From Candidatus Omnitrophota bacterium (lineage in GTDB: Bacteria; Omnitrophota; Gorgyraeia; 2-01-FULL-45-10): a stretch of DNA of 64,000 bases. The notes under the pieces were generated by a model that did no database searches, had not been told where the DNA came from, and saw only the letters and a list, made by a program, of their open reading frames with translations. Positions 1 through 52,323 of this stretch are shown piece after piece (the first letter of the stretch is position 1; the number at the start of each line of letters is the position of its first letter). The stretch lies in NCBI GenBank assembly GCA_041648975.1, contig JBAZNZ010000010.1, positions 10-64,009 on the forward strand. Reading direction: 5' to 3'. Position numbers and translations under genes: made by a program.

Positions 1-3000
1 TTCGCCATCCCTCGACTGGCTCGGGATGGCGTCCTGAGCTCGTCGAAGGACGCCATGTCCGGAGACTGCGGGCCTTGCTGCGCGGCTGAAGATAGGGTGT
101 CCCCTTTTAGGCTGGCCCTGTTTTGAGGAACGCTCGCAATATAAGGGTCCAGATTATTGCCAATGCCAAGGTCCTCGGTCTCCATTTCAAGCTCTTCGAG
201 TTTTTCCTTCAACTCCAAATCCAGGTCGTCAAAGGCGATAATGTTTACGATGTAATCCGCGTCCAGGTCTTCAATCGCAAGACCGGCATTCCTGCGCGTC
301 TCCCCCTCCTCTACCAGCGCGTCCTCCAGGCGGTCGGTTACATCGCCGTATATGTTTTCGGTCACGATCCGCATCCTTGTTTCTTCATCAAGCTGGGGAG
401 TGACCCATGCGGTACAGGCATTGAAGTATTTTTTCAGGTCCGGCGTCAACCCGGCGCCGTCCGGGTTCGTCTTTTCGAGGGCCTTGAACGTCTGGTATTC
501 CGCCCAGAATTCGACGGCGCACGCGTATTCGAGACTGTGGTCATACGAAATAAGCAGCCTTCTGAAGTGTATGTAATTCAATATACGATGCTCGAACCAC
601 TGCGGCGTATGCGCCGCGAGGCATTTGTAGGATATATCTATCGTCTTCCCGTCAGGGGATATATCCAGCAGGTCCGGGTTCCGGGCAGGGCTGCCGAGTC
701 TTAATATCTCTATCTTAAGTCCGTTATCGATGATATATTCTATCGCCGCGTTGGGCAGCCTGCGCATAATCTCCCCGGAGGCTGTTGGGAAAAGCCCCCA
801 TTCGTTTGTAAGAAGATATTCCAGCTCTTTGCGGCATGCCGACTGATGAAGCCTCTTTCTGGCCTCAGCGGCTTTGTCCTTATTTACAAGCATGCCTTGG
901 GCGTCTCTTTTATTGGCCCATTCCATGATCCTGTCGCCGAGCACAGACTTCTCGACGATATCTTCCTCGGACGCGATACCTTCGCTTTCGGCAAAATGCA
1001 TCCACCCTTTCAGCTCCGACTTCTCATGGATGACCTTGGATCGTTTACGGGCATAAACGGTCAGCTCATTGCGGCCTGCATGGTCTACGTCGAAACCGGG
1101 GTTCAGTATTACTACGATGCCGTCTTCCAGCCATAACTTTACAGGGTGCAGCCCCGTAAAAAGGACTATCTCCTGTCCGTCTACATCGTCATCGACTTTG
1201 CCTGCGCGCAACATGCGCCTGCGCTCTTCCTCCACTATATCCTTTATCGCTTTTTCTATATCATAATGCATTATGCCGCCGCGGTGAGGACGAGAACCGA
1301 GCCGTAAACCGTATATCTTAAGCCTGGCATCCAGCGTGTCCGAGATCTTACGCATCTCCTGAGAGATGTTGCTGTGGTACAGGTCATGCGCCTGCCTGGT
1401 CGTGACCGGCGCCAGGCTCGCGGGCATAAGTATATCCCTTGGATAGCGCAAACTGTAGAGCTTCGCGAAAATATTGCCTGTCAGGTGAGCGATCATAAAA
1501 TTAGCGGCAATATCCGGGAAAGTATTTTTAATACCCGTAAAACAGGAAAGGGCCGCTACAAAAAGCGTTCCAAGCATCACCGCTACAGGTATGCCAAAAA
1601 CGCGCTGGTACATATCGGCTCCGCCGGGCGGCTCCTCGCCATTATTCATCTTCTTATACAATTCGATGTAGGCGGATTTATTGAAGTAATGGACAGCGAT
1701 CAAAGTAGCCGATATATAGAAGAAACCAACCCAACCGCCGTTTACATAAAACAAGGCGCGCAACAGCTCCTCTATCAGTGGAGACACAGCCAGGCTCGCG
1801 AACCATCCGGTTCCAAATATTGATCCGGGCATTATTGCCGGTTTATCCCACAATTCATTCATGTCGGCCGGCAGTACCGCATACCCCACGCCTATGCCTT
1901 TCTGGCGGAGCCTCGTTACTGCGAAATTGACGATAAAGTGCGAGACAGCGGTAATGCCTATGGCTATCCAGGGGCTTGATGCGAGGAAAAATACGGCGAT
2001 TGTGTCGAAGATGCTTACTATGGCTGGGGCTATCGATTGCTTGAATATCTTATCGGGAGGCGCCCTCATGCTCTTCAAGTGCAAAATTGTAAATATAAGC
2101 CCACCTATACCTATAATAGAGGTGAGTATGCCTGTACGGAATATTGATATGGCCGGGAATAAATATTCTAATACCGCAAAGAGGCCGAAAGGTGCGCCTA
2201 TCTTAAGTATCTGCTCAAACCATGGGGCTATCTCTATAGCTGTACCCCTAAGAAGCTCCTCTTCACCCAGGTTAAGCTTAAGCACTTTGTTATACCACCA
2301 CCTACCAATAGACTGGGTAAGAGGTAGAGTAGCGGGTTGCCACGGCCTGGCAAACCGAATCTTTATGCGATCCATAGCAGACCTTATCGTCTGTTCAAAC
2401 GGATACACCCATTTCCCGCTTCTTATCCGTTCGGCATGAAGATAGTCATTATATCTTATGACGATCTTCGGCGCCGCACCCACCTCTTCCGACCGCAAAG
2501 ACAATTCGTTTATTCCGTCCAAATCCATTCCAAGGGTTGCTATCGTATCGAGGAAGTCGGATCTGGAATCAATTAGATTTTTGCTCTTCTCGAAATACGG
2601 CCTTACGATCACTGTATCCTTATAAGTCGATTCAAACTGCCCGAATGAGGCGTCAATATATAAAGACGGCTCCTCGTCTCCCGTATACACGGCTATCCAT
2701 TGATGATATACAGGAAGCGCGTCTTTATACTTATAATACCCGGGGATAATTTCAATCCTCACACTATCATTGCCTCCTATCGGAATATTAAATCGCGCGG
2801 ACAATATTTCCGCCAGGATATTGGATGTTATTATACATTCTTGTCTTGCGTATTTAGGCAGAAGCAGCCCTTCCTGTTTCAGCGCGGCGAAGAAATCGCT
2901 TTGGATGCTTCCGGCAAAATCTCCCGCCATGTCCGGGCCTTCCTTCTTCATGTGTGCTTTAAAAAAGTTCATTAACCGGGGTTTTGCAGATGCGTTATTT

Positions 3001-6000
3001 GTAACGAAATAATAACCGAACAGCCCGCTGTTTCCAAACTCCTCTCTACGGGTAAAAAGTGCGCCCTTGTATCCGTTATTTCTGAATAGATAACTTACTA
3101 TAAAATAGGCCATCCTGTTATGAGCGCCTGCCGGATGAGGTAAATAAGAATTAAAGGCGTTTACCGGCCGATATTCCCTGACTGTATCAAATCCCGGCAA
3201 ACCTGGTTTTGCATGCGCCCTCCCTTCGCCTTTCTTAGCATGATCTATCAATATCTGCCGGCCGATGATATAAATATACAGATCGACTGCCGCGTCGAAT
3301 AAATCATTCTCATTGTCGAATCTGGTATTGGCTATTTTCAATATATCCGTATCAACCGGCAACCTTTCCTTTAGCGTGCGTAATCTCTCTGTCCTGATCT
3401 CATCGCTATACTCTTTATTTTTTCTGTCCCCCCTGAATAATTCGACCACATCCAAAACCTTCTCCCAGGTAAGCGGTTCCAGCGGCAGGCCCGAAGGCTT
3501 GGATGAAACCAGCACTTCAGAGTTGAAATAATGGACTGCTTCCATAAAATTGTCATCGACTATTCTATTATCCACATTTAACCGCAGAGACGGCACCACC
3601 GAAACTACTCCAACCTTAGCTGTTGCCTGCAGCGTCGCGTACCCTATTTCATGGCCTCGCATGCGCAGCCGCATGATGATGAAGTTTACGATAAAGTGCG
3701 AAATTGCGGTAACACCTATGGCTATCCAGGGGCTTGTAGGCAGGAAGAATACGGCGATTGTGTCAAATATGCTTATGATGGCTGGGGCGGCGAGTTGCTT
3801 AAATAGGGACTGTCCCCGGACTGTAGAATCCACCGAGGTGGGGACTGTCCCTATTCTTACCGGAGGCGCCCTCATGCTCTTCAAATGCAGAATTATGAAT
3901 ATAAGACCGCCTATACCTATAATAGAGGTGAGGATGCCTGTGCGGAACAGGCCTATGGCCGGGAAGAGACGTTCGAGTATAGCGAATAATCCGAAAGGTA
4001 TGCCGACTTTGATGAGTTGCTCGAACCATGGGGCTATCTCAAGAGCCGTTACCCTTAGAAGCTCTTCCTCGCCAAGGTTAAGCCTCAATACTCTGTTATA
4101 CCACCATCTGCTTATAGACTGGGTAATGGGCAGAGTTGATGGGGCAACTAATCCTTTTGCTGCCGTGGCCGCGGCAAGCGCCCTGCTCTCGCGTAAGCTA
4201 GGCAGATACATATCTCTCTCATAATCGCCGGCGAACCTTCCCATCGTAAAGTGCGCCATAGTATCGTATACGGCATTCTTTGAAAGCTCTGCCCAGCGGT
4301 TTTTATTGTTCGCGTAAACTTCCATGACTTCTGTAAGCGCCTTTAACATATTGTCGGCCGTCTCTTCATTCCTTCTATTGGCCGACTCAATATCCTTATC
4401 GTCTTTTACTTTTATTGAACTTTCATTAAACAGGAACGCCGCCCCCTTTATCTCGCTTAAAGGTTTCGGTTGATTCTTCTCCTCATCCCACGCGTTCTCG
4501 GCTTCCAGGACCCATCCGTCCGGCGTAGAGACGCTCAAGGCTCCGCATAATCCGGCCTTCATACCGCTCGTTCCACTCGCCTCAAGCGGCGGTATGGGAT
4601 TATTCAGCCATACATCGGCTATAGAAGCGAGGTGTTTCGCTACGTCGATATCGTAATTCTCAACGAAAAAGACATCACCCTTGTTACGGTCGCTCAAGAT
4701 AAACTCATTGATACTTCTTATTATATCCTTCCCTTTATCATCGGCCGGGTGCGCCTTACCGGCGAAGACTATCTGTAGCTTTAAACCGCGTTTTGTTGCT
4801 TCCGCGCGTAATGTCTCTATCCTCTTCAATACCAGGTCGAGACGCTTGTATGGAGCGGCGCGCCTCGCGACGACGATGGTAAGGGCGTTATCATCAAGGC
4901 CTTCGAGCCGGCTTGCCGGACGCTTCTGCCTCAGATCCTCAATAGCGGCCTTCTTTGCGGCTTTTCGCATCGCGAGATATTTGTCCGGATCAGCGTAGCC
5001 GATGAGCTGGCGTATCTGCTCTTCATTCAGCCTATCCATTGCCATCCTTTTCAAATAACCAAGGGATTTCGCATGCTTAAGCAGGCCCTCGAGGAAGGCC
5101 TGCATCGGTTTCATCTGCCAGAACCTGCGGTGGACAGCGTTTGTTATGGCTATTATCTTGTTGCCGTTCTTATAAAGCGTCCGCGAAACCCTCGCATGGC
5201 TCTTCGCCACTGCGTTGGCCCTGCATGACAGTTCTAATGCCGCGTCCGCCATACAGACCATATCTTGATTGTTAAATCTTCTGCTCGGATGCAGAAATAT
5301 CTTCTTTATATCCTCATAATTCAAGCCGTTCAGATTCGCGTAATGCTCAAAATAATCCCTGAATAACTCTTCGTCAAATTGTTCGTTGCCGGCTTCTATG
5401 GGCGTGTGGGTCGTAAATATCATGCGGTCATGCGCGGCGCGTTTCGCGTCTTCGAACCGGGACCCTGCCGGCGCCCCCGCCGATCGCCTTTTTTGCTCCT
5501 GACTTATCAATTCAAGACCGGCGAAAGCGCTGTGGCTCTCGTTCATATGCACAAGCGCCGGCCGCATCCCGCAGGAGGCTACCGCCCTCATGCCTCCCAC
5601 TCCAAGAAGAAGCTCCTGCATAAACCGCAGCTCATCCTTGTGGGCGGGCACAATACTTCCGGAAGCGTCTTTGCCGCGATCGTAAAGATTATTCGTAAGC
5701 TCTTTAGCCCTGGGATGCGCGTCGTCTTTAGTATGGTTCTCGGGAATGTTTGTATCCAGCAGGTACATCTCGACCCGGCCCACCCTGATCCGCCAGATCT
5801 TCGCGTAGATATATTTGTCGCAGCCCGCTTCTATCTTAAGGACGATGTCGTTCTTTTTGCCGGTCAGGGCATCCGTCTCCTGGACAATCTCCCCTAATTT
5901 TGAAAAATCTGTAGGCACGTTAATTTCGACCTGAGATCCTACCGGTACGTTTCTATGATGATCGTTAGCATGGTCTTCGGCAGTCACTATATGCTGTTCA

Positions 6001-9000
6001 AAATATCCGTTCTTATACGCCAGGCCTACACCGACAAATGTGTTGGGGCCGTATCGGTCGTTCAGTCCCCGTATAGTGTCGCCCGACAATATACCCAGGC
6101 CCCCGCCGTATATCCTAAGCCATTCCGAAAGGCCGTACTCGAGGCTTAAATATACCACCCTCTCGTCATCTTTAAGCCCAAGCTTCCTTGATGCCTGCCT
6201 CTGTATCCCGGTTCCTTCGATGTATTTGCGGTATGCCGATTCAAGGCGGAGATAGTTGTCGAAATTCAACCGCGCCGGGTCGGCGAGGACAGCCGCGAGT
6301 TCCTCTCTAAATGGGACCGCTGCGCCTTCCTCATTCACTACCAGGCCCTCGACCACAGCAAGGTCCTTGCTGATCGTTTCCAGCCGCCTTCGGGCGGCCC
6401 CCGGCATCTGAACATCCTGCCGGGCAAAGAATCGCGTAATAGTTCCGGCGACTACTTGATTAGCCGCGACAAAAAGCAGCCTTGCCGCCAGCTGGCAATA
6501 GAATATAGTATCTTCGCCGGGAGCACCGGTTTTTGCGCGCGAGATGACCTCATCTGTTAGGCGCCTGTTAAGCCCTGCTATCTCTTTCGCGTCATGGAGG
6601 AGGACCTCCAGGGTACCTGAAGCGGCAGCGTCCTCTGCCTTGACGCTTTCTCTCATATCGTCGATCATTCTTTTATATTTATCAAAAAACTTTTCGGAGA
6701 ACGGCGATTCGGCTTTGAAGAGCATCCACTGCGCGGCGTCGACGGTATCTTTATTATCGCTTTTATTGTACGTGAGGATAACAGCCCTGAACACTTCCAG
6801 GAAATTTTCTTCCTGCCAGTGATTCCGGTGGCCGCTGACAAATTCCCTGGCCCAACCGGCCTGGTATTTCTGACGCAGGAGATCGGCCTCCATATCGAGC
6901 AATCTGCCAAGAAGAGCCTTCAAATCACTATCTGCCTTAATATGGCCTATGACCATCCGTACCGTGCCGACGGCTTTGTCAATAAGGCACTCATTTAAAC
7001 CGGGCATCTTCTCGGCGGCCGCGAGGTACTCCCTCAATCCATCCAGCGCCGACTGATCGCCCTGCTTAAGTCTCTCGCCGAAACCGGCAAGCGTGTCGGT
7101 GTGTTCTCTCATGAATATAGCGGAGAATGCCGAGGCAGGATCAAAAAGTATCCACTGGGCGGCATCATGAAGAGCATCGTCTTTTTCAAGGTTCCATTCA
7201 AGGACCAATGATTTGAAGGCAGAGTACCGGCCGGGTTCGGTCATGTCATACTTATGGTTTTCGATGATCGCGCGCGCCCAGGCGATATTGAGCGTCTGAC
7301 GCAAAAGCATCGCTTCCGCCGAATAGAGCGTTCTCAATTGCTCATGCTCATTGAAATGGGCAATACCGGAACAGACAGCGTTTACCATCTCGCTGGAAAC
7401 GCGCCTTGCCAGACCCGGTATTTCGATAACTTCGTCAATTAGGCCCTTGAGAGCTTCGATGGCCTGTATATCGTCATGCTCAAGCCTGTCTTTTACCGCG
7501 GATATCCTTGCCAAATAATAATCCCTGAATCTGGAAGAGAGCTCTGATTGCGGATCATAAAGCATCCAGCCTGCGGCATCGCGGTCGGCCTGAACGGCGC
7601 TGCGGCTCCAGGCAGCAACAGCCTGATAGCAGGATGCAAAGAATGTCTCATTACCAAAAGCTCCTTTGCGCGATTCGAGGAATTTGCCGGCCCACTCCGG
7701 GCCATGCTCCTGTTCGAGTAGGGCTTTTTCCAGGTGTAGAAGATTCGTTATCTGCGGTATAGAGAGCCCTCCGAGGTCTGGACCGAATGCGTGAGTTATT
7801 TTAGCCAGGATCCGTTCCCTCAATCCGGAAACAATGACCGCATCCGCTACGAGCTGGCCTAACGCTATTCCGGCTTTCATATCACCCGTATGCAGAGAGT
7901 CCCTTACGATAGCGAAATTACCTTCCTCAGCGTAGTCGAATTCCTGCTTAAATCCTCCATCAGCACCTGTCAGTATCCAGAGAGAGCCTTTTTTCATGTT
8001 CTCGTCGCCGTAGCGCAGCATGAGCCGGACAGCCCTTCGGACCTCATTGAGGGGCGCCTGCCATGCGCGGCATTCATCGCACAGCTGCAGGGCCCACGCA
8101 TGATTGGTCCCGTCGCCAAACAGCTGCCGGGCGCGCCTGTACAGCATACTGCCGTTTACGATATCCCGTTCATGCAGTGTTGTGCCGTCGACAAAGTAGA
8201 CGCGCACTTCCCATGGCAGAAACTCGGCCACGGTCTTTTCAACATCCGGCATATTGAGATATTTCGTGATCTCCAGCGTACGGGGTTCGGGAGAACGGTT
8301 TGCCACAACGATAGCGGTCCTGCCCTGATAAGAACGCGTGAAATATACGCACTCATCCTGCGGAGGAGCGTTAAGCATCACCCCTTTACGGAATATGGGA
8401 TCGCCCTTGGCATTTATCACGTTTGCCACGCCGCCGGCTATCGATGTGTCATACGGCAGGGCTTCGTATGTCTCGCCGTCCAGCGGCCTTCCCTCATTCG
8501 TCTCCTTTACAAGCTGCCGGAATTTCTCATAGGTCGCGTGTCTTCGTATATCATGCCGGAGCTCGCCGGTATGGCGATCACGATATCCGGGCATCATAAA
8601 CCCAAGCGCGTCCGGGAAGTTGAACATAAAGTATCCCGGCAAAAACGCCGTTATTGCCAGGTCACACAGGTATTTTTCCCTGTTGCCTTCATACATGCTA
8701 AGGGCAACGTCTTCATCGTGGTTTGATACGAAATTAACAAAGATGCCTATAGTAAGGTACTTTTGAGCATTATATAACCACCTCTGTACCGGCGCGGCAG
8801 AGTCTTCTTTCGAAAATTGATCGCGCAGGCGCGTCCAGAGTTCCGAATAATCATAGAATTCATCAATGCCGCTTTTCCTGAAAATATCGATAAGCGCCCC
8901 GAAAAGATTGTAATGTTCGGTGATGAACCTTGCCTGCGGGAATTCTTTTCTAAATTCAGCCAGAAGTTCTATCGGAAACCTGTCCGCCATATCGATACGG

Positions 9001-12000
9001 AAAACGGTAACCCCTGATTCGATCCACGCCCGGATAGTATTGAGTAAATACCGGTGCACTTTGGGATGGCGCAAATCTAATGCAGCGGTGCTGGTCATAG
9101 CGCGATGCGTCCGGTTGTGGCTTATCAGAACACGGATCCTGCCTGTTGGTTTACCGCCGATCTTCTCTATACCCGAAACAAAACCGCGTTCTTTTAATTT
9201 CACGACCAACGGATCATTGGGATCGTTGCAGGGAACGTATAGCAGGAATGCGGCACTGCGCGGCCCTTCGCTGACTCCCTGTGTTTCCAGTATCTGCTGT
9301 TCGGACAGGCCTTCAGGTATGCCGTCGGCGCGCCACTGGACCGGGACATTCGTATGTGGAACGCACCAATAAGGATGTTTAACGACGAGCGGGCTATCGG
9401 GAGTTAAATGGCCGGTGATATCCACTGCCGTGGTTATTTTGCGGCCGGCCAACCATTGGCTACACGTTTTTACTTTGTCAATAACATCAGGGTCAGCCAT
9501 ATCAGAAACGGAAAAAGCCGAAGCCGTCTCGTTTTTCCGGGCCTTTGGAGTATCGCGCACTACCACCCTGTATTGAACCCTTTCCCCTCCTATATCCCTC
9601 GTGTAAAGATGATCCGGTGGCGATAATTTCGAGTCATTGAGCATCTTCCCTATTTCGCCTTCCCTGTGGACGCCGACGAGATAGATGGTATTTCCTTGCG
9701 GTATAATGATGGATTCCAAAAGACGTTCCAGATTCTGACGAAGCCTGTCCAGTCCGCCTAAAAATCTCACCATGACCTGCATAATACCGGGACGCTCTTT
9801 ATCAAACGCGGGAATGAGGTGAAATACCTGGCCTCCCTGCGGGATCGAGACAGGAAGAGGCTCCGCGGTCAATTGCCTTTTATCTGTCGTGCGCTCCGAC
9901 CTTTTCGTGTTAATGTCGAACAGAAGATATGTGCCCGAGAAACCTTCGATAGCGCCCGCTTCAGGCAGAAAACCAAAACTCTCCGGCAGGATGGCGCCGG
10001 TGTGGTTATCTCCTAAGAAAAGTAAATACACCTCGCCGTCCGCGATTAAAGCAAAGGCATCCATCGATTCTTCGGACTTAACCTTGAGATTTATTAGCCT
10101 GGGCCGCAACGGCTGGGCGCCTGCAATATCACAGGTGTTTTCCGCCTCTACCCAGGCATTCTGCCGGGCTATGTCATTTAACGTTATGCCCGTATCCTCC
10201 TCTGTGATTTCGTATATATCTTCTCCATCCGAGCTCTCGCGTTTCCTGACAAACACTTTGGCCGCCACGGCAGGAGTAATCATATCTTTGATCTTCCCGG
10301 CCCGCATCATGGGAATCTGCTTATACCGCCTCTGCATCAATGCCTCTTCCGTGCCCGCCGGCATTTTCAATCGTCCCGCCTCGGCGATTAACGGTAAAGC
10401 GGCAGGCATCGAGGAAAAGACCTCTTTCATAATCTGAGTGCGAAGATTGATATCATCGACTGCCATCGCCGCGCTCATAAGCTGAGCAATGATCCAACGC
10501 TGCTTTGCCGCGGAAACGAGCTCGAAAAATTTGATAATCGCTCCAAGGCCCGCGAATTTATGGTCCAGGGCCAACGGCAGAACCGAACGGTCACCCGACC
10601 CCTGAAGCAGATTTTCCAATTGCTGGTTATCCGCCGCACTTAAAAATGCGACAGGACCTAAAAATTCTTCATGTGAAATGATCCACGCCGTCCCCCGCCT
10701 TATTATATCCTGATTCGAAAAAAGAAGCCGTTCCAGTACATCCTCAAACACCGCCTTGAATTCGGCGAAACTTATCTCGTCCTTATGATGGGAGTAAAAA
10801 TTGCTTGCCCATGCGGCGCCGTCACCGCCTTCACTCTCCGGGCGGGCTCTTGTATATGCCTCGGCTAAAAGCGCGTCCGCGCTCTCTCTCCCATTCTTGT
10901 ATGCCTCTGTTTGGCGGAATACCAACCGGCAACGGCCGTACTTAGGCAGTTCGATAACAAGTGTTCTCGGCCCAAAAAACACCTTCGTTCCAGTTGATAA
11001 TACTACATTGCTCAATTCCCCTTCCATTGAATCTCCTGCCGCGCCCGGGCCAAAAATACGGTCGAGGCAGATGGTTGTCTCGGTGGGGACATCTGAATCA
11101 TTAACGACCTCAAGGACATCTTCCTGGCCTGTGTGCCGCACCATCGGTATAAGGCCGCTGTTTTCCAGCGTATCGACGTACCATGGAACCACAATCGTAT
11201 GTGTCACTCCGTCGCTTCTTAGAGCAACGGCTACATCCGGTTGAGATTTGCGCACGCTCTCGGCATGCGCCCATCGCCTCTGAACACCTCTATGCGGCCG
11301 ATGAGTAAAGGAATTACTTTCTTCCGCGAGCCCGATGTCCAGATTCTCAAAAGGATACTCTGGGATATAAACAGCAGAGTCACGCCAGTTTTTTTCCGCC
11401 GTCTTTTCGCGAGTCGGCGGCCGCTCGATCGGCAAAAACTCGATAAATGGAATAAGCATGTACCCGCCTCCCATTGCGCATATTGCCGCTGCCGCGCGGA
11501 CATGCTCCATCGACCCAAGGCGTTCAAGTCCTACTCCTTCATCATGATTTGTGTACATAGTCGCGTCTCGCGCCTGCGCGCTCGTCCCGCCTGCCCCAAA
11601 AAGATAACCCCTCACGGCCTGGGCGGTTCCGCCGCTAAGTGTATCAGCGAATTCCTTGTTGTAGCTTACAGCGCATCCCCCCTGGCGCATACCCATCTCT
11701 CTGAAAAAGACCCTGTTGTTCTCTCCGTATACTTCACCCAGAATTAAGAGGCCGGGATGTTTTTCGCGCAAACCGGCCATAAGATCATCCCATATCTCGC
11801 GGGGCATCATCCTGCCGGCAGCTTCTCTTGATATGCCCCAGGGCTTGAGCTTTTCATCAAAATACCTGTTCCAATAGATCCAGTCCGCCAGGTCCGCCCT
11901 TACACCTCCCTCACAGGTCATGTCCGCGATAGAGCCCAATATGTCCGCTATCTTCCCGCGGTTTTGGCCCTTTGAATAATTTATCAGCGCGAGACTAAGC

Positions 12001-15000
12001 GCCCCTGGCGCCATGTGCCGTACAATTCGCATAGAATCGTGGTATCGCGCGGGAAGTATTCCCTCGTCCATCCATCGCGCCATCTCTCCATCAGTCACCT
12101 CCGCTTCGAAGAACATCCCTTCAGCCACCCATGAGAATTCGCGGCCCGGCCCTTTAAGAAGACGCGCCTCCAGCTCCTCGTCGGAAAGATTTTTAAGATC
12201 CGGGTTCCCGCGCGCCCATCCGAAAAATTCGTCTCTATCTTTCCATGACCAGAAGAGCCCCGCCGACTCTTCGCTAAAAATGAGCGGCGAGTCGGAGGCA
12301 AACTGGTTCGTGACAAAGTCGAGATCGCACTTAAGGCCTTTCGGCTTAAGCCTCTCCCGCACAAAACGCCTGAACCCTTCGTTGGTATTATCGGAAGCGA
12401 TAAGCCTTGGGTCTATCTTATAGTCATAGACGTCGTATTTTGAGCCGCTTTCCCGCGTTGCTCCCGGGCTCTCCTTGCCGGATGCGACATCGCGCTCATG
12501 CCACTCGCGAGCCATAGCTTTAGAAAGCGGGCTCTCCTGCCAGACGCCCTTAAACCATATATGGCCGGCCCCCAATTCATAGGCATACCAGTCCCATATA
12601 TCCTTTATCAACTTCGGGTCACAGTGCAGATATCGGGGATTAAGGTGCAGGCGTTTAAGTCCGCTGCTATCGTCTATTATCTTCGCTGGAACGCCATCCC
12701 CGAGATTCTGGTCCATGACCACATCCGGAATCTTGTCAAGAGTCGTCCCGAACGCCCGGGCAAGTCCGTGGGCGTCTACTTCAATAATAAGCTTGTCCGA
12801 ACGCTCAGAGGCCCTTACGGCTTCGCATAAACAAACTATAAGATCTTCCCGCTTATCTTGGACAAGAAAGTTGTCATCAATATAGAGCGTCTCATCGGCA
12901 TACACCGCTTCAACGGGCATCTTCGCGAATCGAATCCTGCTCCTGGCGTAAAGATCGGCTAGAAGCATCACGGCGCCATTATCTCCGCCGATGCGGCTTT
13001 TCGCCTCGGCGAGGACTGCGGCGAAATCGCTCTGGGCTTCCTGGTTTAACTCTATCTCTTTGCCCATGCCGCTTCGAATATCCGCCATTGCCGCGCCGAT
13101 ATTATCCGGCTTGAATCGGCAATATCCGATTACGGCCGACTTTGCCCTCACGTTTCCTGCGCCGGCAAGGGGAGTATCCGACTCTAGCCTTCCGAGCCCC
13201 CAGAGCACGGAAGCGTTTGACCACGCCTGCCTCCAGCACCCTTTGGGGTAATTCTTCTTACCCTCTCCGCCGGGGATTTGCGATGCCTCCGCATCAACGA
13301 GTTCCGGAGAGCCTCCGTTAAAGAGGTAGTCACCGCCCGTATACGGATCGCGCGCGAGCTCCATGCACTCATCCACCATTTTCGCTTTAGCCTCTTCCTT
13401 CGTCATATATCCGTATTCGGCCGCGCATAACATATAGAAAGGATAGAGCCACGGCCAACCGGTTCCGTTGTGATATGCCTTATCCCGATCTTCCTGTGGT
13501 TTATCCTTATCGTAATATCTGTAATAATACTCCCCGTAACCTTTGGGCCAGCCGATGACCTTGCCCTCTTCGTTATCGCGCGTATCCTCTACATACATCT
13601 TTACAGGCGGCGCGAGACTGCGCAAAGCTCCCGTTCCCGGAATAAGCAGGCGGTCGCGCGTTGATTCCACTATCCGTTTAGCGTGTTCGCCGGCCGCAAG
13701 GCCGAAATATACGACGAATATCTGGTTTGGCCTGACGCATGGGTCGCGCCTATTTTCCTGTTTCGATTGCTCCGCCGTCTGGAAACCCTCGGTCCCGAGG
13801 ATGTCGAAGACCGTGCCCTCTTCCTCGTTCCAGAAATATTCATCGAAATTATTCCGGATTTTTTCGGCGGTCTTCCTATATTCTGTCCTATTTTCAGGGT
13901 CTAATTCCCTCATCCTGTTCAGGGCATTGAACCATAGCGCCTGTATCTCGACCGGATATCCCTGGCGCAGGGTATTTTTGGTATCCATCCAGGTAAATCT
14001 GGCCGGACTATAGATGAAACCTGTCGCCGCATCGGCATGAACGCTTGACGGGTCATCGCCTGTGGTAGAGTATCTGGTCATGATAGCACGAAGAACGTCG
14101 CTCACCTTCCTGTTGTTTTCGCCTACTGCCATATCCAGGATCGCTATATCGTTAAATTTGTCGATGTGCCTGTAAATGGCCTCGATGAACCATAATGCGG
14201 CGTCCGACGATTCATACTTGCCGTGCACATTCGGGATAAGCCCATCTTTTTCCCATCGGGCCCATTTTAACAGGATCGCTCTAGTAGTATCGAACCGGCC
14301 GGTCTCGATGGCCCCAAGAAGAGATATCATGCTGTCACGGCCCCATTCCTGATGAGGAAAATTCGGAACGCCGGCTTCTATCGCGGCCAACCCTTCGCCA
14401 TCTATGAAAACGCGCTCAATAAAAGAGTCCATCATTCTTGCCTCAAGAGCTTTCTCTTTGTTTATTGTTATCTCAAATTCATGTTTCCGGCCGGGCTCAA
14501 GTTCGTAATAGATACTGCCGTCGGGGGAAATATTCTCCCCGGGTATAAACATTACTTCGCTTCCGGTGGAAAGATCCACATGCCTGGACGGCTGCGATAC
14601 ATCTACCCCCAGATGGTGAAGTTTTAAGGGGGCAATGCCGGACTTGGCCCGGTCCGAATGGTTCACAACGGACAGGCGCACCCTATCACCGTCTTTCTGC
14701 CATCTGGCCGCGATCAATATACCGTCGGAATCCGATATGATCCTGGATTCGGTAAATGTCCCATCAGCGGCCTGCCCTACCAGCTGCTGGCCCGCTGCCA
14801 TACCGACCGCAAGTTTCAGCAGCCTTGCGATGTCGCGGTTATAGAAGCCGTGACCGAGGGTTATGGCTGTGACGAGGGCTGCGGATATGGTTATGAATAT
14901 AGATATGGCCGTTACATGGGGTAAAAATAGGAACGGAATGATATATATGCTTCTCAAAAAAGTGCCAAGCCCTAAGATGGTGAGTATCTTTAAGGCGAAG

Positions 15001-18000
15001 TCCTTGGTTAATTTGGGAGGCGCGCGGGTGAGTTTACCGCTCTTATCGTATTCGTAGACTCCGCCCATATGGCCGATTGTAAATAATAAAACGGTCGCAG
15101 CCGAAATGCATGCGAATATACCTGTGTGATCATAACCTATTAAATACTGTGCTATACCTAACATACCGCCTATGATGGCCTCCTCGCGTAAACCGCATAC
15201 AAAAGCGATATTTTTATCCTGCCATCCCCTGCCCCGCAAATACGCGATGACAGGCGCAGCCTTTTCAGCATTTATCCTACCTTCTGTCTTGATCTTATTC
15301 CCAATATAACCCGGCGAACAGATGTTCAGGTCGGAGTCCGGAGGCACGGCGAAAAGATCCTTTTTGCCCGATGCGACAATAACACCGTCTGTCGTCTCAA
15401 CCTCTATATGCGCGTCGTAATGGCCCGGTACTCGGGCGGCCCAGTCGTTATGCGTCCATTTTTCATCTCCGGCGGGAAGCCCGGCGCTGACTACGCATTT
15501 CGTCATCGGCACTTTGACTTCGTTGCCGCCTGCAGAGACTACCATATTGACAGACTTGACGTCACCCCGAACATACGCATCTACGAGGAACGGCTCGCCG
15601 ACAACGCGTATCTGCTGAGTCTGCGGCTCTACATTGAGGATCTCTGTCACGCCTGTTTTATGTTCAGGCGGCTTTCTAAAGGATTTGAGATGCATGAGCA
15701 ATTTTACCGCTTCAGTCGCGCGTGCGGTCGTCTGATGCGCTTCTGCGCCGCCAACCCGCTTCAAGTTTCTCGCGGCGCCCAATAGGTCCTCCACCGTGAC
15801 GTCGCCCGGCAGCCTCATCTCCCACTGCGCCGTCTGCACACCGGGGCGGTTCAGCCTGTATTCATCTGTAAGGCCCAGTATATCGAGCCAGTTAAGCACT
15901 ACCATGCTTCCGGGCGAGGCGTATATCATCTCCAGTATCTTCTGGTGGACCTCCGGCGTGAACGCTCTGTAGCTCCCTTCCGGGCCGACAAAACGACTGT
16001 CTTCCGTTTTCCATTTCTTTATGAGCGCAGTCTTCTGAGCTTTAAGATCGGGATTACCATCCATCTCCTCTTCCCACCTCGTCCTGATGGTGCATGAATC
16101 TGAAACGCTTCCCGTTACGAACGCGTTAGGCAGGTGCTTTGACGGGTGGAACATATCACCGGGATCAAGCCCCCATATCACAGGAGTAAGTATCGAGCCG
16201 CCCAACCGGCGTGTCGACTGGTTGATATTTTCGGGAAGCGCGCCGAGCGTCTCCCATATCTCGACCATGCCTTCCTCCTGGGCGAACTTCAGGAATTCCG
16301 ACAGGACACTCTCGCCTTTCGCGAGCTTGAAATAACCCACCAAAACGCTGTCATTGGCTTGCGGCGGAAGCGCGCCGTCTTCAGGGAAGAGGTATTGCAC
16401 CATGAAGCCGCCGTCTTTGAGCATATCGCTCGGCGTAAGCCGTATGAAATCCCACATCGGCTCGCCTTTAAATACCTTCTTCTCGACAATATCCTCCCTG
16501 ACGCGCGGCGAGCCTGGCGGGAGCATTTCGCCGTGCTGGGCCTGCGGAACCATTCTCCCCATCTTTATCATATTATCAGGCCGTAAATTTCCGTGCTCAT
16601 CAAAAAGGAGCTGTAATGCGTCTTCGGGTAATCCCGGATGTTCTCCGCGTTGTCTCATATCCAAAAGCTTACCTTTAATAAGCCCCATGACTTCTTCACA
16701 CGCTTTCTTTTTAGACTTCTTTCCGGCAAGAACCTCTTGCCGTATCGCCTCTATCTTTTCGAAGAGGCCGAGTTTCTCAAGCGTCATATCTTCATCTATG
16801 TCCTGACTTATATGATAAGTACGGTAATATCCCAGGCCGTGGTCTTTGCGGTTATACATAAAACCGAGCTCTTTATACAACATGGCGTTGGCCTTAAGAA
16901 ACTCGAGCGTTGCGGGATTATCCCAGTCGAACGGATAGAACTGCCAGTGCTGACCGGCTGGATATGCCCCTTCGGGCGGGACGCCTTGCACGGTAAGGCG
17001 CCGGTAGCCGTTCTCTTTTTTCAATCCGAATACTTCGGGGTGAAGCCACGTATCTGCGCCGCCGAACGCGAACGGATGGTCTATGGCGAATTCGACGCCC
17101 TGTCTTCTGCCGTATCCCATAAGCTCTTCGAGCTGGCGGCGCGCCGCGAACTGGACGAATAACTGGAACTCTATCTCCTTGGCATGCCGCTGTCTGGCCC
17201 TCTCGATGGCCGGATTCGGCTCGCCTGTCCGTCTCGTCAGTCCGTAATCGCTTAAACCCTTGTCGTAATCATTCCATCTTCTCCAGTCCCATCCGCGCAT
17301 GTTGTTATTCAATAGCCCTTCGGTTTTAAGCTGACGATAAAGTATATGGTCGCTCAACTCCGAGCCGTTCTCCCGCAAGAATCGCTCATATTCGGCGTAT
17401 AGCGGATTTGATTTATCGTCTTTAAAATTACCCCAGACGCGCCTTAAGCAGTCGAGCTTTAATTGCGCCACCCTATAATGGTCCACCCTCTGCGCCGCAT
17501 TAAGCCTGGCGATCTCTGCCTGATTGTCCTTTATAAAATCGGACCCATCCTGCGCAGGATAATCTCTTAAGAATGCGGGAACGCTAAGATATTTAGGGTC
17601 AATGAGCTTGGAGCTCTCCATAGAATAAGGCGAGTTGGAATAAGAATCGGAGACCATGATGGGAAACCACTGGATGATATGCTGCCCCATCTCAGCGTTA
17701 AAATCGACCAGGGGCTTTACTGTATCGAAATCGAGCACCCCCCAGTCCTGCCTCGAACGGCCCTGCAAAAGCGGCATGAAATTTCCGTCTACACGCCGGC
17801 CCGCCTTGACGGGCGAGACAAATTTTTGCGAAACCAGGGCCTGCGGCTGCGAGGCGGTTCCGGAGGTTATTTTGCGCAGGTTCAGAAAATAGGCGAAGAA
17901 TATCGCAAGCGTGCTTCCCGTGAGGCAGGCCAGAAAAACACGGATGTAGACGTCCGAAACCAGCTGTATTCCGACATGACGCAGAAAATCGCCGCCTACT

Positions 18001-21000
18001 TTCCATAAGAAAGGTCTCTGTATGCGTTCCCTCACTTTTTGGACAGAAAATTCTTCTGCGCGTTCGGATCTTTCGCCTTTATAAGATACATTGTGGATTA
18101 TCATAGACACAACCGCATACCAGATCGTAACGACTATGGTGCAGCACGTTGCCAAAATAACTTTCATAAAATACGGCGTCGGCGACGCATAAACGTAATA
18201 TAGGAATGGCCCATTAAGCACGCCCACAAGAAGGCCCATTCCGAACACCTGGTTTATGTCGACTTTCCTGTTCGCGGAATACTGCGAGGAGAAATCTATA
18301 AGCATATTTGAAACTACGGTCATTATTGTGGAAAAGACGACCTGGTAATAGGTAAACGAGGTGAAATAAAGTCCTATAAGCCCTATTACAGAGACAAATA
18401 CAATCGGAATAATGAGACGCTTATTCAGCGTCTCGCCGGGCAGTGTCACCGAATATGACCAGCTCCTGTTTGGAAGCACGAGTTTAACCAAAAATTCCGC
18501 TATTACCTTTAACGCGGACGTGCGTACTTGCGGAGAAACAGGTTGATCGGTACCTCGAAACTGCGCTATCTCGCGCACCGACCTCTGCCCCGGAATGCTG
18601 TCATCCTCCTTGGCCATGTCCGGAGATTCGCCCTTGCGGCGGGGGACAGCTTTTCCCGCGACCGGGCCGGTTTCAGCGGGTTTTTTATATACCGTGATTA
18701 TATCGACCGGTTTGTTCGGGACCATCTGATTGCTAAGGGTATAAAGCTTCTGTTCATGCCGCAGGCCTTCAAATCCCTCCGTAATCAATATCGAGTCCTC
18801 GATAAGCGCCGCTCTCTCCTTCTGGCCGGCGAGCTTCCATTCATCGACCGCTTCAAGTTCATAATAATCGTCTGTGAATGCTATGAATAGCGCTCCTCCG
18901 GACTTAAGCACCCGGGCGATCTCCTCAAATAGCATGCGGTAATTTTTGGGCTCAAGATAGGCCATTCCGCTCGTTATCATAACGACATCGAAGCGCCCGT
19001 CCTCAAAATCGAGCCTTTGGTTTTCATTAAGATCCTGAACCACAGATGCCGTGAGTCGCCTATTGCCGGCCAATTCTATCCTGTTTAAACCGATACCTAC
19101 GACCTCCTCCACCGGTATCGAGCCGGGAATATACGTATTATATCCGCTAAACAGGTCAAGCACTTTTAATGGCCGGCCGGAGCTTCCGCGCGGCAATGAC
19201 TCCCTGGCTTTCTGTAATATTATCCTTTCGGCGGGCTTGACAAGATATGATCGGGTCCTAATCTCCCGGACAAAGCTTGAGGAAGGACGTTTCCGGCCGG
19301 ACTGGCTCATATCGTCTGCCATGTCCGGCACCTTACCCTTGCGCCGCGGTTTGTTCGCCGCCGATCTGACTTGAGCAAGTAAAGCCAATACCGGCGGACC
19401 GCCGAACCACCTCGAAAGTGTTGAGCGCCATGACACCGCCTCATGCAGCTTGTCGAGCGACCACCTGGCCCATACGCCGACGTTACCATCTTCGGCAGCC
19501 GCCTCTTCCAGGGCGCTGAGCGTGTCCTTTATATCGGACTGGCTCATCCCTTCGCATACGTACGAGAGCGCTTCAGCTGCGCTCCTCCTGACAACGGCCG
19601 GCCTGTCGGACCGCAGGATATCGATGAACTTTATCTTCGCCGCCGCCCTCAACGGGTCTGCCGGGTCCACCTTGAACGTGAAGACCCTTCCGAGGACGAA
19701 TAGCGTGTTCGCGAGCTCGTCATCTTTCAAGCTATCGAGTTTCGCCAATTCTAAGGACGCGTCGATATTGCCGTAATATACCTTGTCATGCGCTATCTCC
19801 GAAGCCGCGATTATCAGAGCGTATTTTTTCGGTACCGCTCTCTTCGTATATATGGCCGCCCTCTGGGCTATGACAGGGTTTGAAGCGCCTTCCTCAAGCA
19901 GCTTCTTCTTCTCCACCCTGATCTTATTTGAAAGCTCCTGCATTATCTTATAAGGATGCGTCTTGTAGCCGCCTGCCTTATACATCGCAAGTATCGTCTT
20001 TGTGATAGAAGTAGAATAATCAGATATGGCATCCAGGACATGGCTCTTCAGTCCTGTAAATACCTTCATGTAATAATGGATCACCTCTTCGGTGGAGGTG
20101 TATATGCCGCCGCCGTTCGCGACAGGGCCCGGTATATAGAGAATTCCCATCTCGTGAAGAATGTTCTCGAGACCGCTCTCGAACGCGTTGTTCGACCCCT
20201 CGACTATGAGCTTCGCCCTTATCCTTGATATATTGTTCTTCTGTTTTGTAAATATATTAGACCCCGCCGCGAGCACAAGCGCCGTGCAATCCTTATACAG
20301 GATCTCGTCCGGGTCACCGTCATATCTTTCGACGCCCTCGCCTTGATAAGCCTTGGCCAATTCAAACTTCTCGCCGTTCTCGAACATCTGACGCAGCCTC
20401 ATCAACTCATCGATATCGAGGCCCTTTGCGGAATAGACGGCTCCGAACTTGTCCGAGACACCTGTTATCTTGAAGCCGAGCCTCTTATATTCGGTAAGAA
20501 GGAGTTTTACAACCCCGCTTCCTACATCGCCGAAGCCCTGGATTATTACCGTCTTATTATTTTCATCTATCTTTACCCCGTGATGCGCAAGCGCTTCAGT
20601 ATCTGAAATTGCTACGGCAAGCGAGTCAACGACTCCACGGCTTGTAACCATCCATGGCATATGCGGAAGGCTTCCCATAGCCTCGGGCCTGCTTGTGGTG
20701 GCAAGTATAGAGCGCTTACCGAGGGGCTTCAGGATCTTATTACGGATTACTCTTTCCCGGAATCGCTTATCGGCCTCATCCTGCAGCCACGTCATCTCTG
20801 TTTCGCCCATATCCATGTCCGGGCCGGCTATGTAAAGGCCGCACAACATGCCTGACGCTATGGATGAAGCCACCCAATTCCGTATCACGCTCTCTTTGTG
20901 CGCGCCCGGAACGGCCAGGAAGACTGTTTTGCCGCCGTCAAAGAAGACGTCCCACAAGGGATTTTTGTCTCCCATCGCTTCCGCAAGCCGCGCGGATTCG

Positions 21001-50788: not shown

Positions 50789-51985
50789 TTATACTCCAAT
50801 AACGTGCCCCATCTTCTTCTTCTTCGTCTCCAGGTATCTCTTATTAGTGCTGGACGGCCGCATCTCTAACGGCACGCGCTCCACGATCTCCAGGCCGTAT
50901 CCTTCCAGCCCTACCACTTTTTTCGGATTGTTGGTCAATAATCTTATCTTTTTTAATCCGAGATCCGCCAGTATTTGGGCGCCTATGCCGTAATCCCTGA
51001 GATCGGGCTTAAACCCCAAGGCCTGGTTCGCCTCGACCGTATCGAGGCCTTTGTCCTGAAGTTCGTATGCCCTCAGCTTGTTGGCAAGACCGATACCCCG
51101 GCCTTCCTGCCTCATATAAAGGATGACCCCTTTGCCGGCCTCATCGATAAGTTTCATGGCCGCGCGCAATTGTTCGCCGCAGTCGCACCTCTTCGAACCA
51201 AAGACGTCGCCCGTCAGGCATTCTGAGTGGACGCGCACGAGCGTCGTCCTTTTATCCGGCGACCCTTTGACCAAAGCGAGATGATGATACTTATCCGTAA
51301 AAGATTCGTAAACAAATACCTTAAAGTCGCCGAAATCCGTAGGTACCGTCGTCTGGGCAATCTTCGTTATAAGTTTCTCGGACTTTCTCCTGTATTCTAT
51401 AAGGCTCGCTATTGTGCATATCTTCAGTTTATAAGCCTTGGAGAATTCAAGCAGGTCCGGCGTCCTCGCCATGGAGCCGTCGTCTTTCATTATCTCACAG
51501 ATAACGCCTGCCGGATACTTTCCGGAGAGCCTCATGAGATCGACGCAGGCTTCGGTATGGCCGGCGCGGACCAGCACGCCGCCTTCATTCGCGCGAAGCG
51601 GGAATATGTGGCCCGGCCTTACCAGTTCGTCAGGCGTCGATTTCGGATTCGCCAATATATTTATCGTACGCGCTCTGTCGGGAGCGGAGATGCCTGTAGT
51701 TATTCCGCTTTTCGCGTCGCATGAGACCGCCCAGCCGGTTTTGTAGGGGTCCGGCGCCTTGGCCGACATGGGATGCAGATCGAGCTTGTCCAGCCTCGCT
51801 CCTTCCATGGGAACGCATATAAGGCCGCGGCCGTATTTAGCCATAAAATTAATATCGGAGGCTTTTGTGCAGGCCCCTGCCATCACGAGATCGCCTTCAT
51901 TCTCACGGTCTTCATCGTCTATGACTATGACGATCTTCCCGGTCTTTATGTCGTCCAGGATTTCCGGAATCGTATTGAGTTTCAT
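50789..51985 (-). CDS. ribBA: Bifunctional 3,4-dihydroxy-2-butanone-4-phosphate synthase / GTP cyclohydrolase II
   Basis: DDEDRENEGDLVMAGA (RibB) and C-terminal RibA domain with the Cys cluster CDCGEQL. Confidence 0.9.
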   Translation of the reverse strand: MKLNTIPEILDDIKTGKIVIVIDDEDRENEGDLVMAGACTKASDINFMAKYGRGLICVPMEGARLDKLDLHPMSAKAPDPYKTGWAVSCDAKSGITTGISAPDRARTINILANPKSTPDELVRPGHIFPLRANEGGVLVRAGHTEACVDLMRLSGKYPAGVICEIMKDDGSMARTPDLLEFSKAYKLKICTIASLIEYRRKSEKLITKIAQTTVPTDFGDFKVFVYESFTDKYHHLALVKGSPDKRTTLVRVHSECLTGDVFGSKRCDCGEQLRAAMKLIDEAGKGVILYMRQEGRGIGLANKLRAYELQDKGLDTVEANQALGFKPDLRDYGIGAQILADLGLKKIRLLTNNPKKVVGLEGYGLEIVERVPLEMRPSSTNKRYLETKKKKMGHVIGV

Positions 51986-52102: not shown

Positions 52103-52129
52103 TCTGATTCGACTGTCAACTAATAATCT

Positions 52130-52320: not shown

Positions 52321-52323
52321 ATT

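Follow-up and report, generated by a model that had tools for sequence, protein, structure and literature searches.

A giant Omnitrophota reading frame joining a predicted set of glycogen-breakdown modules in one probably membrane-threaded chain

The giant reading frame

The stretch of DNA analysed here, 64,000 nucleotides of a Candidatus Omnitrophota bacterium (GenBank assembly GCA_041648975.1, contig JBAZNZ010000010.1, positions 10 to 64,009 of the forward strand; hereafter the window, with coordinates counted from its first letter), carries on its minus strand the beginning of a giant gene in which five modules of alpha-glucan metabolism are covalently joined in one uninterrupted frame. In a six-frame stop count this frame is open from 24734 to 1, that is, for 8,244 codons without a stop. 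The ATG nearest to its start, at 24713 (minus strand), lies 254 nt downstream of pgpA and is followed by 8,237 codons up to the left end of the window; residue numbers in amino acids (aa) are counted from this ATG. An earlier note on this DNA, made from its letters alone, had described a fused glucan toolkit at 4215-17770 without giving a strand. These coordinates run from the start of GH77 to the end of GT35 on the minus strand, in the middle third of the >11,000-codon gene, and the modules follow each other in the order GH77, GH133 (GDE_C), GH13a, GH13b and full-length GT35. The motifs quoted in that note are all in frame (GGGLGILSGD at aa 6203, EASGTSGMK at aa 6711, IQALWFNAL at aa 3590 and HNGTGWPWL at aa 3748), and neither a stop codon nor a frameshift is present at any module junction. 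The visible open reading frame (ORF) and its glucan modules are as follows.

1..24713, minus strand: visible part of the giant ORF, 8,237 codons (stop-free frame, three assemblies)
15759..17822, minus strand: GH77 4-alpha-glucanotransferase, aa 2298-2985, with an insertion of ~150 aa (PF02446, PDB amylomaltases)
13194..14438, minus strand: GH133/GDE_C amylo-alpha-1,6-glucosidase, aa 3426-3840 (PF06202, TIGR01561)
11334..12611, minus strand: GH13a, an alpha-amylase-family (beta/alpha)8 module, aa 4035-4460 (profile of its relatives)
8154..9716, minus strand: GH13b, neopullulanase/alpha-amylase-like with a Malt_amylase_C-like end, aa 5000-5520 (PF00128, PF16657, 4aef)
4200..6158, minus strand: GT35 alpha-glucan phosphorylase, aa 6186-6838 (TIGR02094, PDB 9l6i, PF00343)

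That the frame is an artefact, be it a chimeric assembly, a row of genes that are translated one by one or DNA without coding function, might be suspected from the rarity with which giant ORFs are validated experimentally and from the absence of a Shine-Dalgarno motif in the start region. Against this stands the lack of any stop in 8,244 codons, compared with 94, 119 and 220 stops in the plus-strand frames of 4215-17770, which are about half as long (same six-frame count). A look-up of PgpA led, moreover, to three independent assemblies that concur in gene order and in the start of the giant gene: ENA ERZ27247363, Logan SRR8542065 and NCBI GCA_028715235.1, with 99.985%, 99.994% and 99.5-99.7% DNA identity to the window, respectively; two assemblies are 99.98-99.99% identical to it across the first 9.7 kb. 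The products called in these assemblies comprise at least 11,109 aa (ENA, contig k141_1611482), at least 8,208 aa (Logan) and at least 708 aa (NCBI), all three being lower bounds since they stop at contig ends, and at least 2,872 C-terminal residues of the chain lie beyond the left end of the window, where the ENA contig extends for another 8.6 kb. Orthologous, collinear module cassettes are found in other species at 38-66% amino-acid identity. Shine-Dalgarno-like motifs precede 11 of the 317 internal in-frame ATG/GTG codons, none of them at a module start, and no combination of such a motif with a start codon was found at module boundaries that would point to separate translation. Within the giant ORF, no Rfam elements, ribozymes, introns or DNA tandem repeats were detected. 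The artefact explanation is thus largely refuted, and we regard it as hardly credible at all.

Coding on the plus strand or in an alternative genetic code was considered and rejected: no long plus-strand ORF appears under any single-stop reassignment, and the feature is read on the minus strand in the standard code. The ORF listing for positions 1-25,000 contains nothing above 278 aa, the giant frame being left out because it is open at the window edge. The nearest relatives of the chain are encoded in Omnitrophota metagenome-assembled genomes (MAGs). One database entry (P0006; relatives are referred to by P and L numbers), named Candidatus Omnitrophica, is a deposited piece of the same protein, ~99% identical to aa 1006-2355 save one deletion. 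No relatives of aa 7238-8237 were found in GTDB genomes or JGI metagenomes.

Five glucan enzyme modules

Profile searches recover the GH77, GH133 and GT35 families, as the earlier note had anticipated, with significant matches to PF02446, PF06202 and PF00343; PF00128, in contrast, stays under its cutoff for GH13b and is silent for GH13a. The assignment of two GH13 modules nevertheless stands, since family profiles built around each of them match GH13 structures and the Asp/Glu/Asp residues are conserved.

The GH77 module is matched by PF02446 with an E-value of 1.9e-58 (198.9 bits against a gathering cutoff of 25), over profile positions 9-460 of 465 (aa 2321-2969). In alignments with Aquifex and plant GH77 enzymes (structures 1tz7 and 5cpq), its catalytic residues D2624 (in RKDH), E2821 (in WETLG) and D2872 fall into the RxDH, EDLG and HD regions, and all three are invariant in the alignment of the subtype to which this module belongs (A1). 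For GH133, PF06202 gives an E-value of 1.3e-53 (182.7 bits against a gathering cutoff of 21; positions 13-366 of 367; aa 3440-3837) and TIGR01561 one of 1.8e-34. Residue D3460 (WGRD) aligns to D1078 of the Candida glabrata glycogen debranching enzyme (GDE), and in a three-sequence profile D3577 (WMD) and E3804 (PEL) correspond to D1261 and E1502 of the human enzyme; the general acid and base of GDE have been proven to be D1241/E1492 in C. glabrata and D1261/E1502 in human (PMC4837477, PMC12219210). GT35 spans the complete model TIGR02094 (positions 1-600 of 600, 416.3 bits against a cutoff of 191.7) and is also matched by PF00343 (E-value 5e-24, 84.9 bits against 27) and by PDB 9l6i (E-value 9e-56). 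The pyridoxal phosphate (PLP) lysine, K6719 at the end of EASGTSGMK, falls into the Lys column of 9l6i, 4l22 and 2c4m, and the GGGLG loop and an RR...YKR phosphate-site motif are present as well; with its catalytic residues retained, the module is predicted to carry out phosphorolysis of alpha-1,4-glucan.

The two GH13 modules are more divergent. In GH13a the four conserved regions read DLDFVTNQ (I), GVRAD (II, D4274), LGEVYG (III, E4327) and TNHD (IV, D4391). Pfam remains silent on this module even at E <= 1, a direct PDB sequence search gave no match, and neither did a word-indexed homolog search with aa 3838-5000; relatives were obtained by an exhaustive HMMER search, which returned 161 for GH13a. 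All eight relatives tested (~500-800 aa) pass the PF00128 (Alpha-amylase) cutoff, and the Pfam-annotated GH13 module of P0004 is matched with a BLASTP E-value of 1e-18. The columns of D4274, E4327 and D4391 are invariant in the family alignment (A2), whose profile retrieves the GH13 structure 4gkl from the PDB at 5.5e-32. A single-sequence AlphaFold2 model of aa 4020-4560 reached a predicted local distance difference test (pLDDT) score of 34, too low for the model to be used. GH13b has the regions DITGH (I), FRID (II, D5241), ITE (III, E5266) and NHD (IV, D5333). It falls just short of the PF00128 gathering cutoff (21.8 bits against 22; E-value 1.3e-4 over a 44-residue profile stretch), with a weak match to PF16657, and finds 4aef directly in the PDB at an E-value of 2.5e-6, with regions II-IV aligned. 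A five-sequence profile (A6) matches exclusively GH13 structures (4e2o at 3.5e-9, 4aef at 1.9e-8), and R-x-D5241, E5266 and H-D5333 are invariant across the five sequences.

The catalytic residues that the earlier note had proposed to check, namely the GT35 Lys and the Asp/Glu/Asp sets of GH77 and both GH13 modules, are thus retained, as are the acid and base of GH133, and on this basis all five glucan modules are apparently active.

A conserved cassette and its relatives

The segment GH133-X-GH13a-Y-GH13b-repeats, in which X and Y are unannotated linkers, forms a conserved cassette of ~2,800 aa that is common to at least four other giant ORFs:

P0007 (6,307 aa): collinear with aa 3302-6106, 66% identity over 2,820 aa
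P0008 / L011: cassette at ~38-49% identity, followed by GH77
P0009: GH13a-Y-GH13b-repeats, followed by a copy of the transmembrane (TM) module described below
L010 (710-kb contig): the same N-terminal leader, ~1,100 aa, the cassette, then GH77

The dark Y domain (aa 4461-4999) precedes GH13b in all relatives found, with identities of 63% in P0007, 43% in P0008 and 50% in L010 (phmmer E-values from 1e-127 to 1e-221). The X and Y linkers are conserved to the same degree as the enzymes: 63-65% identity compared with 67-75% for the enzymes in P0007, and 48-50% compared with 47-52% in L010. The position of GH77 differs. It follows the cassette in P0008/L011 and L010 and precedes GDE_C in the chain described here and in L012 (2,299 aa; GH77-GDE_C-CheR-HATPase_c), and relatives thus fuse GH77, GH133 and GH13 in other orders as well. 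From the comparison of these predicted chains, the cassette is the conserved unit, around which GH77 appears to have been reshuffled in related giant ORFs. A genuine GT35 module in such a chain was seen solely here among the relatives found. The "GT35-like" part of P0106 was examined as a second GT35 fusion and discarded, as it belongs to GT5 (P0106 combines GT5 with GH13). A "GT35-like" part of P0016 is a further candidate of this kind.

Ordinary relatives of the GH133 module are debranching enzymes of ~1,500 aa with GH13, GDE_N and GDE_C domains. The GH77 subtype, for its part, recurs in proteins of very different composition:

P0001-P0003 (~1,660-1,745 aa): this GH77 subtype with a ROK or hexokinase domain
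L004 (Omnitrophota, at least 7,374 aa): hexokinase, a weak GH57, two to three GH77, three GFO/IDH/MocA, esterases and PMM
L005 (Omnitrophota, at least 5,290 aa): the GH77 subtype, HATPase_c and a weak FBPase-like match
L006 (Planctomycetia MAG, CAYSFB010000002.1, 3254-18007): a complete protein of 4,918 aa with the order alpha/beta-hydrolase-GH77-HPr (weak)-GDPD

Since L006 belongs to Planctomycetia, giant mosaics with this GH77 subtype are not limited to Omnitrophota. The L004 frame (JAHKAJ010000020.1, 2-22123) is free of stops over 22 kb. In P0001-P0003, signal-peptide-like N-terminal helices stand beside the ATP-dependent ROK or hexokinase domain, a combination that would be strange for a protein whose N-terminus directs its export.

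Remainder of the chain and membrane segments

The other features of the visible chain are listed below. TM segments were assigned from Kyte-Doolittle hydrophobicity and a hand reading of charged loops under the positive-inside rule, and helix numbers and orientations are approximate.

24039..24713, minus strand: N-terminal leader, aa 1-250 (hydrophobicity, homologous leaders)
aa 1040-1100, minus strand: TM hairpin B (hydrophobicity)
19914..21266, minus strand: Glu/Leu/Phe/Val-dehydrogenase-like module, aa ~1150-1600 (PF00208, PF02812)
18714..19376, minus strand: class I S-adenosylmethionine (SAM)-dependent methyltransferase-like module, aa ~1780-2000 (PF08241 and PF13649, E-values ~1e-6)
17874..18422, minus strand: TM cluster C, ~5 helices, aa 2098-2280, directly before GH77 (hydrophobicity)
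15144..15746, minus strand: conserved domain trailing this GH77 subtype, aa 2990-3190 (phmmer)
14853..15122, minus strand: TM cluster D, ~3 helices, aa 3198-3287, between GH77 and GDE_C (hydrophobicity)
9717..11333, minus strand: dark domain(s) between GH13a and GH13b, aa 4461-4999 (relatives; no Pfam match)
6414..8144, minus strand: ~4 degenerate protein repeats of ~137 aa, aa 5524-6100 (self-BLAST of tiles)
3624..4142, minus strand: four-helix TM module, copy 1, aa 6858-7030 (comparison with copy 2)
1866..2336, minus strand: four-helix TM module, copy 2, aa 7460-7616 (70% identity between the copies)
aa 7630-7730, minus strand: further TM helices (hydrophobicity)

The leader consists of an Arg-rich N-terminus, a helix resembling a signal peptide or anchor (aa 12-32), a conserved domain of ~110 aa, a low-complexity stretch and a second TM helix (aa 225-248), and homologous leaders are found in P0004 (E-value 6e-13) and L010 (2e-18). 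The low-complexity stretch, rich in Pro, Glu, Lys and Ala (aa ~175-222; 24046-24192, minus strand), is polymorphic in length, with 145 nt in the window and 232 nt in JAQUSE010000053.1. The deletion in P0006 amounts to 45 aa and removes the two-helix TM hairpin B (~21430-21600, minus strand); either strains differ here in a way that leaves the topology unchanged, since the helices lost are even in number, or the assembly collapsed at a microrepeat rich in Ala and Gly.

The dehydrogenase-like module is matched by PF00208 (E-value 1.3e-27), PF02812, PDB glutamate dehydrogenases (E-values ~1e-16) and NF040817 (1.5e-20). It lies, like the methyltransferase-like module, upstream of the glucan modules, and neither has an obvious tie to glucan metabolism. 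The domain of aa 2990-3190 was matched by local phmmer behind GH77 in P0001-P0003 and P0008. The ~137-aa repeats between GH13b and GT35 (23-29% identity, E-values down to 7e-24) match no known family, are present in P0007, P0008, P0009 and L010, and could be carbohydrate-binding or spacer domains. About 50% of the visible chain has no Pfam match even at E <= 1, yet is conserved; unannotated segments include aa 300-1040, 3841-4034, 4461-4999, 5524-6100 and 7030-7460. The description of the chain as a glucan toolkit therefore applies to its five glucan modules and leaves aside the glutamate-dehydrogenase-like module, the methyltransferase and the large share of conserved, unannotated sequence.

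At least six hydrophobic clusters are distributed along the visible chain, and clusters of predicted TM helices lie between blocks of modules. The membrane association proposed earlier is in keeping with these many TM-type segments, although a chain threaded through the membrane repeatedly, as predicted here, would not be simply anchored to it; the processive machine that the earlier note envisaged is a hypothesis. The four-helix TM module occurs twice in the chain, at a distance of 600 aa, and once more in P0009, and it conserves the motifs IAPWxEQ, FxxLHL..RAPP and HxxxN. Its identification as a CPBP/Rce1 protease (PF02517) was attempted and abandoned: there was no Pfam or NCBIfam match at E <= 10, no PDB profile match and no homologs, and an AlphaFold2 model from a two-sequence alignment (pLDDT 45) was too poor for a fold search.

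These membrane segments bear on the possibility that the chain is a polyprotein, a membrane-inserted precursor that would be cut into enzymes or blocks by proteases acting in trans or by embedded modules resembling intramembrane proteases, in which case the fusion would serve co-expression and co-localisation and not form a working mega-enzyme. On its consecutive helices the duplicated TM module retains one Glu, a pair of His and one Asn (IAPWxEQ, FxxLHL, HxxxN), which at the level of motifs recall the CPBP/Rce1 catalytic quartet, presumably E140/H173/H227/N231 in MmRce1. This likeness is one of motifs alone, however, and even there FxxLH and HxxxN fit while the canonical EExxxR is not kept (EQxxK). 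Because modules are shuffled as units between relatives, they are probably autonomous, as separable enzymes would be, and cleavage by C39 or S8 peptidases has been raised for Omnitrophota giants (West-Roberts et al., bioRxiv 10.1101/2023.11.21.568195). On the other side, no peptidase family was detected in the visible 8,237 aa, and linkers conserved like the enzymes fit structured inter-domain contacts better than disposable spacers. On balance we consider a polyprotein unlikely.

Proposed function

The interpretation that we favour, with moderate confidence, is that the giant gene places glycogen/maltodextrin-breakdown modules within one of the membrane-threaded multi-enzyme metabolic cluster proteins of this phylum, with the TM clusters tethering the pathway. 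Outer chains would be phosphorolysed by GT35 to glucose-1-phosphate; the maltooligosyl stub would be taken off the branch by a GH13 and/or the GH77 transferase, and the remaining alpha-1,6-linked glucose hydrolysed by GH133; GH77 would then disproportionate residual maltooligosaccharides, so that phosphorolysis could continue. Overall, this would amount to "indirect debranching" in the breakdown of glycogen or maltodextrin, as is implied by the covalent linkage of GH133 to GH13 modules. Indirect debranching is typical of eukaryotes, and the GlgX route is typical of bacteria. Because the GH133-GH13-GH13 cassette is conserved, its sequences suggest that the "eukaryotic" indirect route of glycogen debranching may be used by some bacteria as well, with a new arrangement of modules. 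In either case, with the chain left whole or cleaved afterwards, the TM clusters would hold the entire pathway at the inner membrane face. Most modules probably face the cytoplasm, since the same chain has NAD(P)- and SAM-dependent modules and since glucose-1-phosphate is useful inside the cell only.

A more specific version of this interpretation, which we offer tentatively, is that the intact chain works as a hard-wired metabolon, converting glycogen to glucose-1-phosphate and glucose by eukaryote-like indirect debranching within one membrane-stitched polypeptide. The GH133-GH13-GH13-repeat cassette would then represent the debranching enzyme in a greatly enlarged, permuted bacterial form, and the TM clusters would place single modules, perhaps GH77 among them, across the membrane from the rest, so that the uptake or trimming of external maltodextrin could be coupled to internal phosphorolysis. 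If this were true, pathways in these ultra-small cells would be organised in giant ORFs instead of in operons and soluble enzymes.

Several observations weigh against the breakdown pathway at the inner face of the membrane. With ~5 helices before and ~3 after GH77, and with K/R-rich intervening loops and post-cluster flank (a hand reading of low confidence), GH77 and its trailing domain would be separated by the membrane from the other modules. The N-terminus is signal-peptide-like, and published work favours extracellular predation roles for related giants (West-Roberts et al., bioRxiv 10.1101/2023.11.21.568195). The visible 8,237 aa contain neither phosphoglucomutase nor glucokinase, both of which the pathway would need for its completion, while the C-terminal residues beyond the window, at least 2,872 in number, fall outside this inventory. 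Finally, consensus His residues are missing: the region-IV His before the third Asp of GH77 is Ser here (Ala in P0001, His in P0002, P0003 and P0005), which is a deviation of the subtype and not of the fold; the region-I His of GH13a is replaced by Gln; and GH13b has no region-II His. Because each of the three modules deviates from its family consensus, their rates or specificities may differ from those of the model enzymes.

Some of these points are shared by the proposal of an extracellular tool, in which modules at the surface or in the periplasm would digest alpha-glucans such as the glycogen of lysed prey or host, as suggested for "Archaeovorin"-type giants. The signal-peptide-like start would agree with it, as would the many TM clusters, which must leave some segments outside, the positive-inside reading that puts GH77 and the trailing domain on the trans side, and the signal-peptide-like helices with which the GH77-subtype proteins P0001-P0003 begin; the literature leans in the same direction (West-Roberts et al. 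2023; Seymour et al. 2023). Yet the product of a PLP phosphorylase, glucose-1-phosphate, would be lost outside the cell, and the NAD(P)-dependent dehydrogenase-like and SAM methyltransferase modules need cytoplasmic cofactors. P0001-P0003 themselves carry ATP-dependent ROK or hexokinase domains, which argues for an N-terminal helix that anchors cytoplasmic enzymes, and West-Roberts et al. call predicted localisations unreliable. Taken together, this makes an extracellular role quite improbable.

The same families could also be read in the anabolic direction, with GH77, GH13a/b and a reversible GT35 elongating or rearranging a storage granule or a capsule-like coat at the membrane. Such a role could draw on the transglycosylase activity of GH77 and of many GH13 enzymes and on the reversibility of GT35 in vitro. 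Related giants bear GT5 starch-synthase-type domains, as in P0106, the corresponding PF08323 is the commonest domain of the published sugar module (bioRxiv 10.64898/2026.06.07.730766), and storage-glycogen synthesis has been proposed by West-Roberts et al. (bioRxiv 10.1101/2023.11.21.568195). The GH133 glucosidase, however, is strictly hydrolytic and catabolic, and the visible part has no GT5, GlgC or branching-enzyme signature. To our knowledge, GT35 is catabolic in vivo in all characterised systems, which likewise speaks against synthesis. We therefore regard glucan building as very improbable and retain membrane-tethered breakdown as the preferred interpretation.

Relation to known systems

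Giant genes of Omnitrophota have been described as encoding many TM regions, glycosyltransferases, glycoside hydrolases, methyltransferases and GT5 glycogen-synthase-like domains, with cleavage as a possibility (West-Roberts et al. 2023, bioRxiv 10.1101/2023.11.21.568195); Kizina et al. 2022, in the form in which it is cited there, is linked with "Archaeovorins". Giant ORFs occur across Omnitrophota classes (Seymour et al. 2023), and a survey of 916 proteins of at least 10 kaa (bioRxiv 10.64898/2026.06.07.730766) distinguishes as its class 1 "multi-enzyme metabolic clusters", with a sugar-metabolism co-occurrence module (PF08323, PF00534, PGM, ROK), and detects a signal peptide or TM helices in 94% of the proteins. 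The chain described here resembles these giants in phylum, in size (>10,000 aa; here at least 11,109), in the tiling of enzyme families of which none dominates by copy number, in its methyltransferase and glycoside-hydrolase content, in the numerous predicted TM helices after a signal-peptide-like N-terminus, in large conserved dark stretches and in a poorly conserved overall architecture. It differs in that the published sugar module consists of GT5 starch synthase, GT1, phosphoglucomutase, ROK and hexokinase, whereas GT35, GH77 and GH133 are present here; in that the visible part has no SecA-like, C39, S8, NUDIX or dockerin domain; and in that its module set would make up one coherent catabolic pathway. 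GT35, GH77 and GDE_C go unmentioned in West-Roberts 2023, Seymour 2023 and bioRxiv 10.64898/2026.06.07.730766, and a literature search for Omnitrophota together with "glycogen phosphorylase" returned nothing relevant. The fusion can accordingly be called undescribed, as the earlier note had it, for this exact set of modules, while giant Omnitrophota multi-enzyme ORFs with a sugar module and many TM helices were already known. What is new is the coherent glycogen-catabolic module set, the ~2,800-aa cassette and the presence of GT35 in the chain, and not the kind of giant protein.

Among smaller proteins, the closest parallel is the AGL/Gdb1 debranching enzyme (a GH13 transferase with GH133, ~1,500 aa) together with its bacterial counterparts of ~1,500 aa (e.g. 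L013). In both cases GH133 is linked to GH13, and the (alpha/alpha)6 glucosidase has the same WGRD, WMD (acid) and PEL (base) residues. The order is reversed here, however, GH133 coming before GH13; the two GH13 modules are of the alpha-amylase/neopullulanase type and not of the hDGE_amylase type; GDE_N and the central domains were not detected; and the whole is set within a membrane-threaded giant chain. The GlgX/MalQ (NF011083, NF011082) and TreY-MalQ (NF011077) proteins, which give partial matches to the GH77 module, likewise fuse GH77 with another glycogen enzyme. Those are soluble two-enzyme proteins of 1,200-1,700 aa with a GH13 isoamylase-type debrancher in place of GH133, and the scores obtained here are far under their equivalog cutoffs. 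Classical bacterial catabolism by GlgP/MalP, MalQ and GlgX uses the same GT35 and GH77 families with the same predicted products, but from separate genes for soluble proteins, with direct debranching by GlgX and without membrane association. We know of no characterised precedent for a GT35-GH77-GH133-GH13-GH13 chain broken by TM helices.

The function of Omnitrophota giant ORFs has been mostly guesswork, as most of their length is unannotated. The present chain is unusually easy to interpret because it contains five well-studied families with their catalytic residues kept, which fit one textbook pathway with simple assays. It is thus a practical test case for whether embedded enzymes are active, whether the chain acts whole or processed, and on which side of the membrane the modules lie.

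Gene neighbourhood

The neighbours of the giant ORF are housekeeping genes: PNPase, dUTPase, UppP, FtsK, RodZ, a MiaB-like radical-SAM enzyme, PgsA, PgpA, LigA, XerC/D, rib genes and SMC. No stand-alone glycogen genes were found elsewhere in the window.

A few of the neighbouring features deserve mention in their own right. The SMC gene (54212-59509, minus strand; 1,765 aa) is interrupted near the N-terminal P-loop by an intein whose homing-endonuclease domain is of the LAGLIDADG type (Intein_splicing 2e-25, LAGLIDADG_3 3e-18). An ORF of 1,251 aa at 60243-63998 (minus strand) has NUDIX as its sole recognisable domain, and NUDIX is among the domains given for Archaeovorin-type giants (West-Roberts et al., bioRxiv 10.1101/2023.11.21.568195). 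An FMN riboswitch (92 bits; 52129-52321, minus strand) lies upstream of ribBA (50789-51985), with RibD and RibF close by. Finally, the gene at 37459-40074 (minus strand) encodes an 871-aa fusion of a DHH/DHHA1 phosphoesterase, two CBS domains and the head domain of a poly(A) polymerase/CCA-adding enzyme.

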